Under the pieces are notes generated by a model. That model saw only the letters and a list, made by a program, of their open reading frames with translations, did not search any database and was not told the DNA's origin. DNA of 64,000 nucleotides from a virus. This document shows positions 3,815-42,299 of the stretch, in pieces. The translations under genes were made by a program, and so were the position numbers. Positions within the stretch are counted from its first letter, which is position 1. Each line of letters starts with the position of its first letter. The stretch is from positions 129,181-193,180 of IMG/VR virus record IMGVR_UViG_3300040786_000030; one strand, written 5' to 3'.

Positions 3815-5936
3815 ATGTCATACATAATTAACGGGACAAACCCATTCGTATCGATAAAATTAACTGAAAAGGGCGTGAGCAACTTAGTATGGGTCAACTT
3901 ACGTTTTCACATTGGATTGGTGATTCTGAAATTAACTATAATAGAGAAATAATTGTAGATGCTAATCCAAATGATGTTACATTATCTGCTAGTAGCAAGG
4001 TACTTAGACCATTAGATAAACAACCTAATTGTAAATATTTTATTACACCAATAGGTGCTTCAAGCCCTATCAAATTTTAGATGGTGGTAGTTTAAACGTT
4101 ATAAAAGCTGTTGTTAATAATGAAGCGACTGAAAGAGGTTTCTTTTCAGGGACGACTTATAAAACTTTAACTGGTAGTACTTATTCACCATATTCAACAA
4201 CCTTCTCAAACAGTTACTTAACTGGTGGTACGGTAATGAATGGTTTTACAGCTACAACTAAATTTAATGTTGGTGATTTATTATTAAATTAAATAATAAT
4301 AGTTTATCAGGTGCGCCAGCTGTAAATACTAATACAGTACCAAGACCTAATATTTGGTATAAAATAATTGGTGTTAATAGTACTTCAATAACTGTTGATA
4401 GAAAATTACCTAATTACTCATCACAAAATAGTTACTTATCAGAATTAATTACATATAAAAGTGGTGAGGTTTATGATACAATTGCTACTGGTAATACAAG
4501 CGCATATTGGGATAGTGGTACTTTGTCTTTTGATTCTGCATCTAATATAACGTGTCATGATGTTCCAGTTTGGAATATGAATACTGTTTGGTGTGAAAAT
4601 CTTGCTGGTATAACTGGTTTAACTACAACAAACTTATATGAAGATTACACTAAATTTGGTTCATATCAATATTTGGGTGATAAATCACCATATTTAGATT
4701 ATCCTTGTGGTTCTGACCTAACAAGTACTGCGTCAACATGTAATACTGTTGGTTTAAGTTATGATGATGAAGTATCAAAATCGATATCTATTTTACATTA
4801 TACAAATAACGCTATTTCAAGTCTATATGGGGAATTCTTATATATTGATGCTACAAATAATAAAATAGTTAAATTAATATTTCCAGATTTAATGTACCAT
4901 AGGTCTAAATTTGCTACAACAAGTGGTGTTACCATGGGTATGTCATTTATAGCTACTGGTTCAACAAAATATGTTACAAACACAAATATAGAGTATGTAG
5001 ACTTAATCGAAGACTCAACATATGTTTCAGGAACACCTTTAGTTATTGGTAGAGTATATACTCAATTAAAAACTATTGTAATTCATAATGATGAAATTAT
5101 AGCTGCTCTATCTTACAAATCAAATAGAAACTGGACATTACCAAAATTAGCAGCAACAGTAGCATCACCAAGTGGTGGTACATCTACTGGTATATTATTA
5201 GTTGATAGTACAATTTACTTAACATATTCACTTGAAAGCACAATAGATGGTTTACAAACTAGTCTACCTTGTCAAGATTATGTTAAATTAACAAATACTA
5301 CAAATGCACCTAAAGATATTGCATTTAGAATTAGTCAAACTGATTTATTACCTTTTATGCGTAAAATAGAAGGTGGTTATGATGGTCTAGGATTTTATGC
5401 TGATAAATTTAAATTATTATATCAAATTGTTAGTGATGAAAATACTCGCCCCGACCCAGGCGCTTGGAAATCTTATGATTATACATCCACAGCCATAACT
5501 GGTAATGTTGGTGAAACAATTGACCCTAAAAAATTAGAAATACAAACACCAACAATAACTGGGTTTATGTTAGATACGATTAAAGATTCTACGGCTACAA
5601 TTTTGATTTAACAAAATCATTAAATATGGCGGCAAATTCTTCACCTACAAGTTTACAATTTGGTGATGAACGTTTTTTCTATGGTAATATAAAACATATA
5701 TTGGTGCGACAATTTTCAAAACGATATTTGATATTAGAGTTAACTCTGGATTATTCAACGCAACAACAAATCCAACAAGAAGTAAAGATTTATCAACAAA
5801 CCCACCTAATATTAAAGTGAGTGAAGTTGGGATATACGATATAAATAAAAATTTAGTTTGTATTGGAAAATTAAGCAAACCAGTAGCTTTAATAACTGGT
5901 GATACGATAATGATAGAATTAGCACTAGACTTTTAA
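3815..5936 (+). CDS. Large structural protein, baseplate/tail-collar-like (frameshifted)
   Basis: Starts MSYIINGTNPFVSIKLTEKG; ends with SEVGIYD..NLVCIGKL..P tail-collar/baseplate-like motif; preceded by ATATTTAT motif. Confidence 0.55.
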
Positions 5937-34829: not shown

Positions 34830-35272
34830 TGACTATTGAGCAAATAGATGGAATTAACCCTAACGCAATAGTGTGGGATGGGTTAGATGAAGCAATAGTT
34901 GGAATGGCAAATAAAGCTGTTAACGGTGAGATAATTATTTTAGATGGCGATGGAGAAGAAGTTATAATTGATTCATCAGATGATGCTTATTTAGAATATG
35001 GTGACGATGTTAATATAGATAGATGGGATAGAGATGAGTTCGGACCAATAGTTGCATATGATATCGATAAAATGATAGAAATTTTAGCTAAAGATATGGA
35101 AGTAGATTTAGATGATTTAGATGAATATGAAACAGAGGATGAAAGAAAATACACTTTGGCTTTAGAGTTTTACGATTACAACACAAATGGTGCTTATGTT
35201 GGTGAATTTACACCGTTACATATTCATGTAAAAAAAATTAAAATAGATAAATATGGGATTAGATTATTATAG
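34829..35272 (+). CDS. Acidic hypothetical protein
   Basis: DGLDEAIVG..AYD..KMI..A.EF..YN..GAYVGE.TP motif common in phage hypotheticals. Confidence 0.6.
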   Translation: MTIEQIDGINPNAIVWDGLDEAIVGMANKAVNGEIIILDGDGEEVIIDSSDDAYLEYGDDVNIDRWDRDEFGPIVAYDIDKMIEILAKDMEVDLDDLDEYETEDERKYTLALEFYDYNTNGAYVGEFTPLHIHVKKIKIDKYGIRLL

Positions 35273-35956
35273 TGAGTTTCAAAACTACGCAATAAAACAC
35301 ATGGGTATGAGTGGAATGGAATTCTACCAATGGGAGCAATTACAAAACACAATTTACTCAAACGTAAGTGTTCAGTCAAGTTTAACACCTTATATCTTAG
35401 AAGAAAGAGAATTAAGGGTAACGCAAATGGATATCTTTTCACGTTTGATGATGGATAGGATTATTTGGTTAGCTGGTCCTGTTAACGATAGAATGAGCAC
35501 AGTTGTTCAAGCGCAATTATTATTTTTAGATAATTTAGATAACAAAGATATTACTTTTCATGTTGATTCACCTGGTGGGTCTGTTAAATCTGGTCTTTCA
35601 ATTGTTGACCAAATGAATTATGTTAAATCTGACATTATTACGATAAATACAGGTATGGCTGCAAGCATGGGTAGTATATTATTAGGTGCTGGTACCAAGG
35701 TAAGCGATTTAGCCTACCATCTAGTAGGGTAATGTTACATCAAGTATCAACAGGTGCTTCGGGTAATATTCAAGATATTAGACGCTCAATTGCTGAGGGT
35801 GAAAAATACAATACAAAATTATTTGATTTATTAGGTGATTATTGTGGTAAATCACGTGAACAAGTATTAGAAGATGCTAATCGTGATTTATGGTTAGATG
35901 CTGAAGAAGCAAAAGCTTACGGTATAATCGATGGTGTTATAACAAAAAGAAAATAG
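35253..35956 (+). CDS. clpP: ATP-dependent Clp protease proteolytic subunit (copy 2)
   Basis: MDIFSRLMMDRII, DSPGGSV, AASMG, MLHQ, RDLWLDAEEAKAYGIID; one indel; ends in TAG. Confidence 0.93.
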
Positions 35957-36066: not shown

Positions 36067-36436
36067 GGGGTACACGGTTTTGACTGGATATAGTCGTAAA
36101 TTGTAAGCATGTAGTGCTAAATTGAAGCACTTAAAACTATCTATTAAAACATTGAATTGACAACGATTATATCGTATCAGAAAATTTCCTTAATGAAAGC
36201 AGCGTGTCTGTTTTCGAAGGAGAGGTTGCATTTGCCTAACAATTGTAAATGGTAGTAAACTACCTATGGTGTTGAAACACCAAAAAATACGTTTATAACG
36301 TGTTTAAATATATATAGGTTGTTATAGATATGGAACCATAATCATCTTAAAAGGATTGCCAGTTTATGAATTGGATAAACATGTAGAAATCGTTGAAGAA
36401 TATCTTAGGACAGGGGTTCGAACTCCCTTACCTCCA
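36067..36436 (+). ncRNA. ssrA: tmRNA
   Basis: 5' GGGGTA..GGTTTTGAC, GCATGTAG/AAACATGTAG pairing, 3' GGACAGGGGTTCGAACTCCCCTACCTCCA; tag ORF 36159-36239 DNDYIVSENFLNESSVSVFEGEVAFA*. Confidence 0.92.
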
Positions 36437-36551
36437 AATTATCAAAATTAACTCACCTCCACGTGGTGATAATTGGAAACAGATAAAGCTGGCAAAGAAG
36501 TTAATAAAAGTGGAGATATTCGGTTTTCTAAATATACACATATTTATATGT

Positions 36552-38548: not shown

Positions 38549-38613
38549 AAAGAATAGTTACAGCAAATAAACAAAACTTTAAATCTTAATTAAACTAAAA
38601 ACATACTATTCTG
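38549..38613 (+). ncRNA. Putative ncRNA, family member D (minimal)
   Basis: agaatag/ctattct helix plus 3' g, ttacagcaa motif; followed by a terminator hairpin. Confidence 0.55.
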
Positions 38614-38620
38614 AAACACA

Positions 38621-38648
38621 AATCCTCACTCAAAAGTGGGGATTTTTA
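38621..38648 (+). terminator. Intrinsic terminator
   Basis: aatcctcact-caaa-agtggggatt followed by a T run. Confidence 0.7.
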
Positions 38649-38676
38649 TAATAATAAAGACTAAAACAAGTAAAAA

Positions 38677-39355
38677 ATGAAAACAATTCATTTAGAAATC
38701 AGAGATGGTAACGGTGGGTCCGATGCAAAGCTATTAGTAACACAAATGCAAGACATTTACACTAAAACAGCTAAAATTAACAATCTAGAATGTTCAATAG
38801 TTGACGTTAGAGATGGTTTTGTTCATCTATGTCTTTAGCGGTTCTGACCCAAAAAAATATTTAATAATGAACAAGGTGTGCATTCTTGGCATCGAGTCCC
38901 ACCAACAGAAAAAAAAAGGTAGAGTTCATACAAGCTCCATAACAGTTGTTATTTTAGAAGATAATAACTATAAAGAGAAAAACCTTTCAACTAATGAAGT
39001 TAAAATCGAAACAACTAGAGGTCAAGGTCCAGGTGGTCAGCATCGGAATACCACAGATTCAACGGTTGTAATAACTCATGAATCCACAGGTATCAAAGTT
39101 GTTAGGAATGGAAGATGTCAACATAAGAACAAAGCTGAGGCTTTAATTGAATTAACCAAAAGAGTTAATGAATTTTATAGATGTGGACATAATTCTATCG
39201 ACATTGAACATCGAAGAGGTCAGATAGGTAATGGTGAAAGAAGTGATAAACGAAGAACATATCGTGTAAAAGATAATTCAGTCAGTGACCATATAACAAA
39301 CAAAACAGCGTCACTAAAAGATATACTTAGAGGTAAAATAGAATTATTATCATAA
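38677..39355 (+). CDS. RF1-type peptide chain release factor lacking domain 1; candidate programmed +1 frameshift at CTT-TAG-C (38833-38839)
   Basis: LEIRDGNGGSDA, EQGVH..HRVPPTE..GRVHTS (PxT = RF1 specificity), GPGGQHRN (GGQ), RSDKRRTY. Confidence 0.85.
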
Positions 39356-39820
39356 TTAAATTCCCCAATTGGGGAATTTTTTATTTAAAAAGTTAGAATA
39401 TTTAAATAAATAAATGTATCTTTGCTTTATGATAAATATGTTATAGATATGGGTATGTTTGATTTTTTAATAAATAGTAATAAAAAGCTAAGGTTGGTAT
39501 AGAATATATCTATCTATCAAATACAGCTTGGGTAGGTGGACTGAAAACCAGTCAAATATGGGTCAATTATGGTAGATGTTATTAAACTACCTAATGATTC
39601 TTTTGAGTTTACCGATAAATTGAGTGGAATTAGATATACAACTAATTATGGGTGGTCTTTAGCTGAAAACACACCAGAGAATATAATGAGTATTAATGAT
39701 TATTTAGTATCTAATGCTAAATTAGAAATATTAGAAAGAAGTACAAGATTATTACGTAAGAAAATAAATGACTTAAATGGTCCTAGTAAAATAAATAATA
39801 ACGATTTAAAATAGAAAAAT

Positions 39821-40332
39821 ATGAATAATAATAAATTTCCTAAATTACTCTTGGTTGGAAATATGAGACATGGGAAAGATTCAATGGCTGAAATACTAGG
39901 TGAAAATTTTGGTTTAAAATTTAAATCGTCATCACAAGCTGCTGCTGATATTTTATATATGATAAATTGAAGGTTAAGTATGGTTATAAAACATCTGAAG
40001 AATGTTTTGAAGACCGAGTAAACCATAGAAGTGAATGGTATGATATGATATGTGAATATAATTTAAATGATAAGGCTAAATTAGCTAAGGGTATTTTAGA
40101 AATCACTGATTGTTATGTTGGAATGAGGGATAGAAATGAAATAAGCGAGTGTATTAATCAAGGGTTATTTGATTTAATTGTTTGGGTCGATGCTAGTGAT
40201 AGATTACCGTTAGAGGATAGTTCATCGTTTAATATTGATAAAGCATGTGCTGATGTTATATTAGATAATAATGGTACTTATGAACAATTTGTTGAGCGTG
40301 TTATTAGGTTTGGTAAAGTTTTAATAAAATAA
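39821..40332 (+). CDS. P-loop dNMP kinase-like protein
   Basis: LVGNMRHGKDS P-loop; GMR..E; D.ILDNNG. Confidence 0.6.
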
Positions 40333-40900
40333 TTATGGCATATATAAGTAATGTTGAATACGAAAATATAAAAATGGTGCTATGGATGGTACCAAGGAAA
40401 ACCCAGTTATTGGGAGATTTGATAAAACTATAAATTAGCTCTATATTTAGGTTACAAATTAAAATGGGATTATGATTATAGTTATAATAATTCAATTAAT
40501 GGTTATTTTCATGTAATAGAACCAATGTTTAAAAAAATCATATAATAGGTTTGACTTTGAATACGTGTCTGATGATACAATTAATTATACTTGGGATTTC
40601 ATCATGGTAGAGGTTCTGCCTAAAATTAAAGAAGATGGTCTTTACGATGATACTATGAGTAAATCGTTAAATGATTTAGATTTAGTATCTCTATTTAATG
40701 CTATTATGGTAGTTATAAATAAAAAATATATTTAATATTTACTTGTATATTTAAAATATAGTTGTATATTTGCACAAGATAAATGAGGTGGTAACTTTTA
40801 CTAGGATAAAAATCGTTGAAGCTAATAAGACAATTAGGTTGGTAAACAATACGTTGGGAGCTAATAGTTGAGAAAATAAAGCGGTAATAAATAACCAAAT

Positions 40901-40972
40901 GGTCTATTGGTCGAGTGGTAAGATAGTAGTCTCTAAAACTAAAGATGGTGGGTTCGAGCCCCACATAGACTA
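40901..40972 (+). tRNA. Amber suppressor tRNA (anticodon CTA)
   Basis: ggtctat/atagact acceptor, D-loop GAGTGGTAA, tagt-ctCTAaa-acta (anticodon 40933-40935), GGTTCGAGCC T-arm. Confidence 0.85.
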
Positions 40973-40985
40973 CAAAAAATAAGAT

Positions 40986-41056
40986 TCCGTGTTGTGGGTA
41001 ACGGCAACTTAACCTCGAAAGCAGGGGTGATTCTGGTTCGAATCCAGAGCACGGTA
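40986..41056 (+). ncRNA. tRNA-like RNA with a GAAA-type loop in place of the anticodon
   Basis: ccgtgt/gcacgg acceptor, ttctg-GTTCGAATC-cagag T-arm, cctc-gaaa-gcagg hairpin. Confidence 0.55.
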
Positions 41057-41119
41057 CAAATTAACTTGACTTTTAATTAAATGTCATATATTTATTATTA
41101 ACAAACAAAACAATAAAAA

Positions 41120-41468
41120 ATGAAGTAGGTAAACGAAAAATTAAGGGTAGTTACAAGACGAGATTTAAATCTTGCACATCAAGCAGTTCAATCTGGACAT
41201 GCAGCTATTGATTTTCAACATGAACACTTAGTTGAAGCAAAACAATGGCAAACACAATCAAATTATTTAGCATTTTTAACGGTAAACGATGAACCAGAAT
41301 TAATTAAATTAATTTCTAAGGCAATACTAATTGGTATAAAGCACACTATTTTTTAGAGAACCAGATATAGGTAATCAAATAACAGCTGTAGCGTTTGAAC
41401 CAAGTGATTTATCTAGGAAATTAACTAGTTCATGTAGTTTATTAGGGAAGGAGTTATCCAATGCTTAA
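41120..41468 (+). CDS. Peptidyl-tRNA hydrolase Pth2-like, with in-frame TAG at codon 3
   Basis: ATG AAG TAG GTA then KLRVVTRRDL..AHQAVQSGHAA..FREPDIGNQITAVA (one extra T near 41350); missing from the ORF track. Confidence 0.8.
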
Positions 41469-41720
41469 TATATCAATACAAAAGAACTGATATTATTTTA
41501 CACTTTAATAAAATGCATTTACAAGATGCTAACATCCCAATGTGGGTAATTAAAGCTAAGGTCAGACATATTATGTAAATCATGTTGATATGGATTCTGG
41601 AATTGGTTTTCAACAAAAGAAACACCAGATAATCCATCAACAAAGGGTTCATTAAAATTTAAAGGTAAGTTAGATATAACTGATGAAAATAATACCGTAA
41701 ACGCAAGGATTTACGGTTAA
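41461..41720 (+). CDS. Hypothetical protein coupled to the Pth2-like gene (frameshifted)
   Basis: HFNKMHL.D..IPMWVIK.KG.TYYVNHV..TKETPDNP.TKGSLK. Confidence 0.55.
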
Positions 41721-41725
41721 AACAA

Positions 41726-41794
41726 GGCGAGGTAATCAAATGGTAGGTACAGTTTTGAAAGACTGGTATGTTGGTTCGAATCCAGCCCTCGCCT
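41726..41794 (+). tRNA. tRNA, anticodon uncertain (probably Phe GAA with a lost base)
   Basis: ggcgagg/cctcgcc acceptor; cagtt-ttgaaa-gactg 6-nt loop; canonical T-arm. Confidence 0.65.
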
Positions 41795-41830
41795 CTGATA
41801 ATAATAATAATAATTTAAAAAATAGAAACT

Positions 41831-41857
41831 ATGAAATAGATACGAAAACCACCTTAA
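41831..41857 (+). promoter_or_regulatory. Candidate leader minigene M-K-(amber)-I-R-K-P-P-stop
   Basis: ATG AAA TAG ATA CGA AAA CCA CCT TAA after an A-rich start context; about 70 nt upstream of a gene at about 41930. Confidence 0.5.
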
Positions 41858-41929
41858 GTTTTATTACTTTACATGACTCGGATATTCAGTTATCAATAAA
41901 ATAAAATTATAAAACTTAAAAAAAACAAA

Positions 41930-42299
41930 ATGAAAACACAAGAACAAAAAATGAAAGAAGCAAAAATTATCTTACTACGTCAGCACAACATTTATTTATC
42001 GTTAATGATAAATTTATTTTAAACTTATAGAATTTGAAGTAGATGGTAAATTACATTATGCTAAATTAATGGTTAACCCACAAAGTGTGACAATTACAAA
42101 TATTGTTACGACTTGGTATAAGCAGAGTTATAAACAAGATTTGTTTCCACAATATTTAAAAAAAAATCGATACCTCATTTTAAAAAAAATGAAAGAAATT
42201 ATAGAATTAGTTAAACGTGATATTAGTTTAACTGATAATAAAGTTTTAATTGAAAAGATTAAATTATTAGCCAACAAATTTGAAATTGTAAAACAATAA
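41930..42299 (+). CDS. Hypothetical protein (frameshifted)
   Basis: MKTQEQKMKEAK start joined to ORF 42069-42299; terminator after. Confidence 0.45.

Follow-up and report, generated by a model that had tools for sequence, protein, structure and literature searches.

The stretch of DNA analyzed here (positions 129,181 to 193,180 of IMG/VR virus record IMGVR_UViG_3300040786_000030; 64,000 nucleotides, hereafter the window) carries four features involving the amber codon UAG within 3.2 kb: a release factor 1 (RF1)-like gene broken at CTT-TAG-C, a transfer RNA with anticodon CUA (tRNA-CUA), a Pth2-like gene starting ATG-AAG-TAG, and a leader formed by a micro-open reading frame (micro-ORF) with an early TAG. 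These features make up two separable devices rather than one circuit: a cassette of tRNA-CUA, Pth2-like gene, and leader on the one hand and the release factor (RF) gene on the other. Their elements, in window coordinates, are as follows.

38677..38838, plus strand: RF1-like gene, first frame, 53 codons from the domain-2 EIR..GG.D motif to CTT-TAG
38833..38839, plus strand: CTT-TAG-C, predicted +1 frameshift site, no upstream Shine-Dalgarno (SD) sequence
38837..39355, plus strand: RF1-like gene, +1 frame, 172 amino acids (aa), HRVPPTE loop and GGQ; homopolymer errors near 38850 and 38909
40901..40973, plus strand: tRNA-CUA (ARAGORN; Rfam, 58.1 bits), loop CUCUAAA, G1-U72, A73, short variable region
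41066..41093, plus strand: candidate sigma-70-like promoter TTGACT...TATATT, read by eye between the tRNA and the Pth2-like gene
41120..41468, plus strand: Pth2-fold gene, ATG-AAG-TAG (TAG at 41126-41128) plus 112 codons; window error near 41350
41461..41720, plus strand: 87-aa gene, start overlapping the Pth2-like stop; missing from some loci
41831..41857, plus strand: amber micro-ORF MK*IRK(K)PP*

Because the virus record (193 kb, 29% GC) is full of single-base insertions and deletions, with a coding density of 26.5% and a longest ORF of 411 aa, each stop codon had to be cleared of sequencing error first. For this we used contigs of the same phage (L001, L002, L021, and L022; 98.9% identity to the window), in which the neighboring genes are whole. 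Compared with L001, the window has 85 gap positions over 8.6 kb, mainly in homopolymers. The accurate contigs (L001/L002 and L021/L022) retain all four UAG features without the window's frameshifts. In the RF gene, the breaks near 38850 and 38909 are gone and CTT-TAG-C is the sole one left; tRNA-CUA is present; the ATG-AAG-TAG start of the Pth2-like gene is kept and the frameshift near 41350 is gone. A depth-75 contig of run X1, possibly from the same sample, covers 38606-40925, and the RF site is unchanged among the changes listed for it. The features are also conserved in relatives (see below). The initial annotation of this locus was thus correct that all four are real, and the accurate contigs did not remove the TAGs, ruling out a sequencing artifact. 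Two details had to be corrected. The leader is present, with its early TAG, but the window copy is short of three A residues and the true reading is MK*IRKKPP*. In addition, clpP had been taken as an ordinary gene ending in TAG (35954-35956); the accurate contig has TAA there, and 6 nucleotides (nt) missing from the window create the TAG. This region (35253-35956) is split by errors in the window, and relatives have a single ORF of 231 to 243 aa.

To assess the genetic code, we examined the accurate 41-kb contig together with four relatives, 233 to 369 kb in size. Reading TAG as sense raised coding density by 0.6 to 3.7 points in the five genomes, similar to the TGA control. TAG terminates 7 to 12% of ORFs (6/62 in the accurate contig; 48/403, 67/632, 51/567, and 28/393 in the relatives). 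We also scanned for ATG followed by one to four codons, a stop, and then an extended open frame; this recovered the Pth2-like gene in 5/5 genomes, together with eight other matches, none shared between genomes and one of them with TAG. No second conserved in-frame TAG gene was convincing in a filtered comparison across the five genomes, judged by eye. Given that the density gain matches the TGA control and that this second gene is missing, we conclude that this giant phage and its relatives use the standard code. This agrees with what had been proposed for the window, namely, a standard-code phage in which TAG still ends ordinary genes (clpP aside) and in which in-frame TAG is not systematic elsewhere. 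Coding density and internal-stop scans rule out genome-wide recoding of either TAG or TGA. Of the hallmarks of genetic code 15, an encoded tRNA-CUA was found here; a density jump and many in-frame TAG genes were not. The A-rich, SD-less starts would suggest a Bacteroidota host, which we only presume; bS21, considered as a host clue, was found in 0/5 genomes.

The early amber is a constant feature of the Pth2-like gene. Protein similarity yielded 105 loci (L177-L230, 49 others, L118, and L131; L231 was dropped), which collapse into 68 clusters at 95%. The start is visible in 66 of these clusters; every one of the 66 carries a TAG in frame at codons 3 to 8 after ATG, and none has a sense codon in its place. 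The tRNA-CUA gene lies nearby in 56/68 clusters and the micro-ORF was found in the fetched flanks of 51/68. The proposal that the features are conserved and occur together is supported, with tRNA-CUA, amber Pth2-like gene, and leader making up one cassette; CTT-TAG-C is a minority form among RF relatives. The leader preceding the TAG is 1 to 7 codons long, which weakens the suggestion that the start acts as a two-codon minigene. A purine directly follows the TAG in 61/62 distinct Pth2-like starts, compared to 66/115 ordinary TAG stops. ATT is the codon that comes next in 46 of the 62, with GTT in 6 and GTA in 5; AAC, AAT, ACC, ACG, and AAA are likewise seen, and mycobacteriophages have GTG. 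In one locus (L223), the minus strand near 4985 holds another Pth2-like start, MTH*ISNKEK..., which continues into an unrelated ORF and looks as though an insertion had broken it up. The wider family comprises 2,223 clusters at 50% identity; members that show Gln where the amber lies may stem from gene calling under code 15 and were not used to deduce the inserted residue.

Both profile and structure comparisons point to Pth2. The protein matches Pfam PTH2 at 30.2 bits (cutoff, 23), and its AlphaFold model (predicted local distance difference test score [pLDDT] of 97; an earlier fold from 10 sequences, pLDDT 55, was not used) retrieves Pth2 in Foldseek (expect value [E] 6.9e-8; TM score, 0.74 to 0.80). 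As modeled, then, the protein has the Pth2 fold, in common with archaeal and eukaryotic Pth2 and with phage PTH2 genes. The latter are known and have been proposed to serve in ribosome rescue (Iyer et al., PMC7824862), and the available text of that paper does not mention an early amber in them. The phage protein analyzed here differs from these proteins in its active site, as discussed below. The overlapping 87-aa gene, which has no Pfam, PHROG, or Atlas match, is likely translationally coupled to the Pth2-like gene, judging from the overlap.

The same arrangement occurs in cultured and curated phages. We inspected 21 GenBank phage records and saw the early TAG in 16 of them: Bxz1, Catera, IkeLoa, Phabba, ScoobyDoobyDoo, pT24, XacN1, RAS14, BF, RsoM2USA, ME3, Arash, and four huge-phage assemblies. 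We found tRNA-CUA for 14 of these 16; it is uncertain for LR756502. For RsoM2USA, the published description reports a tRNA-CUA that our pattern scan missed. No early TAG, and no tRNA-CUA confirmed by the pattern scan, was found in RaK2, S-CBWM1, or Aeromonas phage 65, and Lak-A2 and Lak-B7 have no in-frame early TAG. In Bxz1, Catera, IkeLoa, Phabba, and ScoobyDoobyDoo, start-TAG-GTG lies just behind a promoter-like site (by eye). All five inspected cluster C mycobacteriophages carry the gene-tRNA pair, and 206 Mycobacterium phage records hold the gene. The pair is also present in cultured Bxz1, XacN1, BF, and pT24, and across phages of Mycobacterium, Proteobacteria, and Tenacibaculum it is the same gene that carries the amber. 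XacN1 and RAS14 encode longer proteins with the Pth2-like domain at the C-terminal end. The fused longer domain lies on the C-terminal side in pT24 (L238) and on the N-terminal side in RAS14 (L235) and XacN1 (L250), with the amber staying at codon 3. A bacterial chromosomal origin was rejected, as GTDB genomes gave two matches, one a phage-like 6.7-kb contig with the cassette and the other the weak L231. In several GenBank records, the gene has no annotation or its annotated start lies after the TAG.

The tRNA itself keeps several features. Stems diverge widely among the 72 distinct tRNA-CUA genes; in the 71 scored, G1 is kept in 61, A73 in 55, the loop CUCUAAA in 52, and a variable region of 4 to 5 nt in 68. 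The "Pyl" name is solely an ARAGORN label. tRNA-Pyl has a small D-loop, a 3-nt variable loop, and a 6-bp anticodon stem, and in shape this identity is ruled out by the canonical cloverleaf matching RF00005 and by the variable region of 4 to 5 nt. Amber suppressors that carry U35 and A73 tend to be charged with lysine in Escherichia coli (PMC9976931, as far as its available text goes). We give even odds to charging of the phage tRNA by a host synthetase, which on these grounds would most likely be lysyl-tRNA synthetase. We consider it quite probable that tRNA-CUA reads through the amber codons. Further tRNA-like elements are found around it. Just 3' of tRNA-CUA, an element with an irregular anticodon arm (40987-41055) is called Leu-aag by ARAGORN in the window and has a 4-base call in the accurate contig; similar odd elements lie 3' of the Pth2-like gene in mycobacteriophages. 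UUA-anticodon tRNAs, matching ochre, lie near the Pth2-like gene in Lak phages (L241, 2240-2312; L245, 1847-1919) and in the standard-code relative L188 (near 1919).

Downstream, the micro-ORF runs into a predicted long-range RNA helix, ahead of a further gene.

41854..41864, plus strand: predicted helix 5' arm, holding the micro-ORF stop codon; 11 Watson-Crick pairs with 41909-41919
41909..41919, plus strand: helix 3' arm, at -21 to -11 relative to the downstream ATG
41930..42299, plus strand: 123-aa gene MKTQEQK..., predicted output of the leader
41726..41795, plus strand, upstream of the micro-ORF: tRNA-Cys-like gene (U73) with a 6-nt anticodon loop

The micro-ORF has the general form M-x-TAG-I-x-R/K-x-P-P-stop, with RAPP, RAPT, RGPT, RPP, KPP, KAPP, or REPP before the second stop across the family and KKPP in the window's phage. 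Codons after the TAG differ synonymously and by whole codons. When we scanned for the pattern allowing any spacing (119 loci), the frame after the TAG was kept in 28/28 matches lying no more than 1.5 kb from a Pth2-like gene or tRNA-CUA, compared to 41/92 others (Fisher P = 1.7e-8; the loci are not independent). Such selection on codons behind a stop is, at the sequence level, the best evidence that the stop is passed. A looser pattern matched once in each of five genomes and four times in G002, where a single match was at the cassette. The helix is likewise maintained. Across 66 spacers, the longest Watson-Crick helix averaged 9.8 bp with the spacer's own partner, 7.0 bp with partners from other loci, and 6.2 bp with shuffled sequence; 0/2000 permutations reached the observed mean, and 45/66 spacers have at least 9 bp. 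Both arms have changed in L193 and L312, and in L312 a TAA-to-TGA change of the stop is matched on the opposite arm. At the place of the 123-aa gene, which has no usable Pfam, PHROG, or Atlas match, other phages carry unrelated-looking genes.

This layout suggests that the leader likely acts as an attenuator. Like SecM, ApdA/ApdP, and the RQH family, it is a short upstream ORF with a RAPP/RGP-like end, kept at the peptide level, ahead of a gene and with a stem over the start region; TnaC is presumably a comparable leader attenuator. It differs from RAPP-type arrest peptides in its length of 8 to 10 residues, in having the motif right before the stop, and in that a start-proximal amber must be passed first. 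On balance, we think that stalling on the leader and opening of the stem probably occur. Elsewhere, a 735-kb phage (L233; LR756501) has two tRNA-CUA genes, an MS*SRPP* micro-ORF, and an RF gene with two in-frame TGAs. The tRNA-Cys-like gene upstream has a counterpart with the same 6-nt anticodon loop in a different phage (L024, 5601-5670); most close relatives have a GCA anticodon in this gene, often with unusual loop bases.

We then turn to the RF gene. Pfam PCRF positions 100-144 match the first frame (E = 5.7e-5), and Pfam RF-1 matches the +1 frame (76.5 bits). Joined, the protein has 225 aa with a PxT loop and GGQ, starts at PCRF profile position 100, and lacks domain 1, so it does not have the full RF1 layout (domain 1, ~360 aa). 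A search of PDB ranked RF1 (E = 1.9e-31) ahead of RF2 (7.9e-17) and PrfH (1.6e-9). Relatives were taken from 84 loci, comprising 78 of the 79 returned for the best 80 of 347 matches (L002 duplicates L001), two others, and four GenBank records, which encode 75 distinct proteins. GGQ is present in 75/75, and the loop is PPT in most, with variants PST, PPN, and PPS. The gene is interrupted in 73/75, by TGA only in 58, TAG only in 11, both in 3, and TAA in 1; of the remaining two, one is intact and the other unclear. The 58 TGA-only genes divide into 26 with CTT-TGA shifts, mostly with an SD sequence, and 32 with in-frame TGA. CTT-TAG-C at the same site occurs in 7/75, the window's included. Near the window's clade, TGT-CTT-TAG-C and TGA-CTA share one position and are interleaved on the tree. 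The conserved property of the gene is thus that its product is made only if a stop is not obeyed, not UAG itself. A large clade of RF loci (L130-L174; 39 to 68% GC) has prfB-style GGAGG-N3-CTT-TGA, with five TAG and one TAA at the same site. An opal suppressor behind the TGA forms was rejected, the single TCA call among the five genomes resembling tRNA-Glu by eye; a distant RF locus (L143) has one tRNA call with a TCA anticodon.

Frameshifting at the RF site is very probable. The site shares with prfB (RF2) CUU-UGA-C a conserved CUU-stop-C that joins the halves of a class I RF gene in the +1 frame, and distant RF relatives carry SD-N3-CTT-TGA. It differs from prfB in that the gene is RF1-type and lacks domain 1, the stop here is TAG, no internal SD sequence lies 3 nt upstream, and the family alternates between frameshift and in-frame TGA at one place. 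SD-less shifting of the prfB type is reported in Flavobacterium (PMC10798248). According to the available text of Prince et al. (PMC12421855), TAG occurs in none of 8,164 prfB motifs and prfA has no programmed shift. Were its specificity that of RF1, the gene would regulate itself in the TAG form and sense a shortage of host RF2 in the TGA forms. In frame 0, the next stop lies 2 codons after the TAG at the window's site and 1 to 56 codons on at all 12 TAG shift sites checked; because in-frame suppression reaches this stop, tRNA-CUA would lower, not raise, RF output. Two other systems invite comparison. The eRF1-like gene of Mimivirus and Megavirus is also a viral RF decoded past internal stops, by readthrough and frameshift (Jeudy et al., PMC3521657), and one relative here (L117) has both; the viral factor is eukaryote-type, however, and the available text describes no suppressor tRNA or gated cassette. 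PrfH, a class I RF paralog lacking the N-terminal domain, has been linked to repair of damaged ribosomes (PMC6514570). We rejected PrfH as the identity of the phage protein on the basis of the E values above, the PxT loop, and the fact that no RtcB-sized neighboring ORF was noticed.

We therefore ask how the cassette and the RF gene relate. Both lie within ~5 kb of each other in 16 distinct loci, 11 of which have TGA only and 5 the TAG shift site. Among cultured cassette phages, no such RF was found in XacN1, BF, pT24, or ME3, and in Bxz1 the match is partial and lies in a 141-aa frame. Since 11/16 linked loci are TGA only and 4/5 cultured cassette phages lack the RF gene, it is likely not in one circuit with the cassette, and the initial idea of the phage RF as an obligate competitor at UAG is not supported. 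The explanation that we favor, as more likely than not, is that tRNA-CUA switches on a small private gene set, with the RF gene as a separate device. At ambers just after two start codons, tRNA-CUA would outcompete RF1. At the first, readthrough would yield the Pth2-fold protein and its coupled 87-aa neighbor; at the second, it would carry ribosomes to the Pro-Pro-stop end of the leader, where a pause is likely. A ribosome at this position would mask the 5' arm, leaving the downstream start accessible, and one halted at the TAG would mask less of the arm. Separately, the RF1-like gene would make a backup RF when termination is weak, here through the +1 frameshift predicted at CUU-UAG-C and, in most relatives, through UGA.

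The gated genes likely help to clear stalled ribosomes, a purpose suggested by the Pth2-fold cargo and the neighboring genes. In the window, these neighbors include transfer-messenger RNA (tmRNA) and ClpP; in other loci, what we take by eye to be TROVE/Ro60-, RNA-ligase-, and polynucleotide kinase-like ORFs lie near the cassette. The window's tmRNA gene is directly followed by a hepatitis delta virus-like ribozyme (36067-36505; Rfam RF02682, 46.2 bits), which possibly trims the tmRNA 3' end; theta ribozymes have been proposed to trim phage tRNAs. We see even odds that the switch responds to weak termination or to translation stress in the course of infection rather than to timing alone. A more tentative extension casts the locus as a widespread phage sensor of translation damage. 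The suppressor would beat RF1 only when release factors are sequestered or host tRNAs have been cleaved, unlocking a Pth2-fold rescue protein and, through an amber-gated arrest-peptide attenuator, a counter-defense gene; RF1 genes lacking domain 1 would read shortage of host RF2 or RF1 through switches flipped repeatedly between UGA and UAG.

Several observations weigh against the explanation that we favor. No tRNA-CUA is present in the DNA fetched for 12/68 clusters, several of which have short flanks, and L131, L202, and L226 lack it despite kilobases fetched on at least one side. The absences in RaK2, S-CBWM1, and Aeromonas phage 65 are soft, since the same pattern scan missed the RsoM2USA tRNA. 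The loci are related, so that counts and P values overstate their independence. The leader peptide has only 8 to 10 residues, and RAPP-like motifs in ordinary proteins are reported mostly not to stall (bioRxiv 10.1101/2023.09.02.556018). In 21/66 spacers, the helix is shorter than 9 bp, with just 4 to 5 bp in distant loci. The Pth2 catalytic set is Lys/Asp/Thr, and a literature search found no paper backing these residues. Compared with AF2095, the Lys of the GK motif is not kept and the Asp of DAG aligns with an invariant Glu77, so a peptidyl-tRNA hydrolase role is only putative. The dynamic steps of the mechanism are all deduced from sequence.

Re-initiation could bypass the tRNA altogether, given ATT in 46/62 starts, GTG in mycobacteriophages, and an in-frame ATG five codons after the TAG in XacN1. 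Ribosomes would then terminate at the TAG and restart at the codon after it (ATT, GTG, or GTA), the mini-ORF just delivering them and tRNA-CUA having another role. The GTT and GTA codons at other starts fit this, as does start-TAG-GTG in the five mycobacteriophages, annotated from GTG. However, the stop is always TAG although most genes in these genomes end in TAA, tRNA-CUA tracks the TAG across unrelated phages, and codons such as AAC and ACC also follow it; we judge restarting to be rather improbable. The tRNA could instead gate as a pure timer or guard against leakage, delaying or dampening a protein harmful early, with no stress input. Accumulation of the tRNA alone would suffice, and the scheme resembles the late-gene model proposed for recoded phages (bioRxiv 10.1101/2021.08.26.457843). 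Readthrough is a step common to this scheme and our preferred explanation, but a timer leaves the rescue-type cargo, the Pro-Pro-stop leader, and the repair neighborhoods unexplained, and we hold it to be quite improbable.

Two further alternatives concern the locus as a whole. In a single UAG circuit, phage RF1 would oppose the phage suppressor at all ambers, autoregulate via CUU-UAG-C, and shut the cassette, and the tRNA would lower RF by filling the shift site. The clustering of four features within 3.2 kb, the TAG shift site in 5/16 linked loci, the RF1-type PxT loop, and the dead end of frame-0 readthrough at 12/12 TAG shift sites checked are all consistent with this. Yet 58/75 RF relatives are TGA only, the two stop forms intermix across the tree, 4/5 cultured cassette phages lack the RF, and the window's recognition loop has His in place of the Gln of E. 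coli RF1. We consider such a circuit unlikely, although it may hold locally as a secondary coupling. Finally, the features might be a relic of, or an intermediate to, genome-wide amber recoding, or else an artifact. The window is rich in errors, and gain of a suppressor has been proposed to precede recoding (bioRxiv 10.1101/2021.08.26.457843). Against this, the features survive in accurate contigs, the density gain is no different in kind from the TGA control, the five genomes have no other conserved in-frame TAG gene, and the same gene carries the amber in phages infecting Mycobacterium, Proteobacteria, and Tenacibaculum. This possibility is largely refuted and extremely improbable, and the initial suggestion of a step toward or away from amber recoding finds no support in coding density or in the scan for conserved in-frame TAG.

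The locus comprises two devices and is broader than initially supposed, and its cassette would be a variant of gene gating by suppressor tRNA. In stop-recoded phages (code 15; Lak and crAss-like), a phage tRNA-CUA has likewise been proposed to gate genes with in-frame TAG, and in Jade phages a "code change module" of tRNA, synthetase, and RF has been described (Borges et al., bioRxiv 10.1101/2021.08.26.457843). In contrast to these phages, the code here is standard, and we found only two amber targets, each close to a start codon and next to the tRNA. The targets are not lysis or structural genes, and the RF is RF1-type, whereas the recoded phages are reported to have RF2 with TAG recoding. 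A full-text literature search, covering few subscription papers and no supplements, returned no amber-gated Pth2-like gene, leader, or interrupted phage RF1 family; supplementary tables, e.g., those of Al-Shayeb et al., could annotate these genes. An amber-gated attenuator is apparently undescribed so far. An RF1-type gene with a CUU-UAG-C shift would mirror prfB, and the available text of a survey of 12,753 bacterial genomes reports none.

The arrangement is kept in dozens of phages, whose genes gene callers overlook or shorten. The Pth2-like gene offers a target for phage suppressors whose papers named none and, given the gene-tRNA pair in cluster C mycobacteriophages, this is testable now in Mycobacterium smegmatis. 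If the proposed mechanism is true, natural amber suppression would serve these phages as a two-gene regulatory switch without a change of code, and phages would have a reason to hold a suppressor before recoding evolves.

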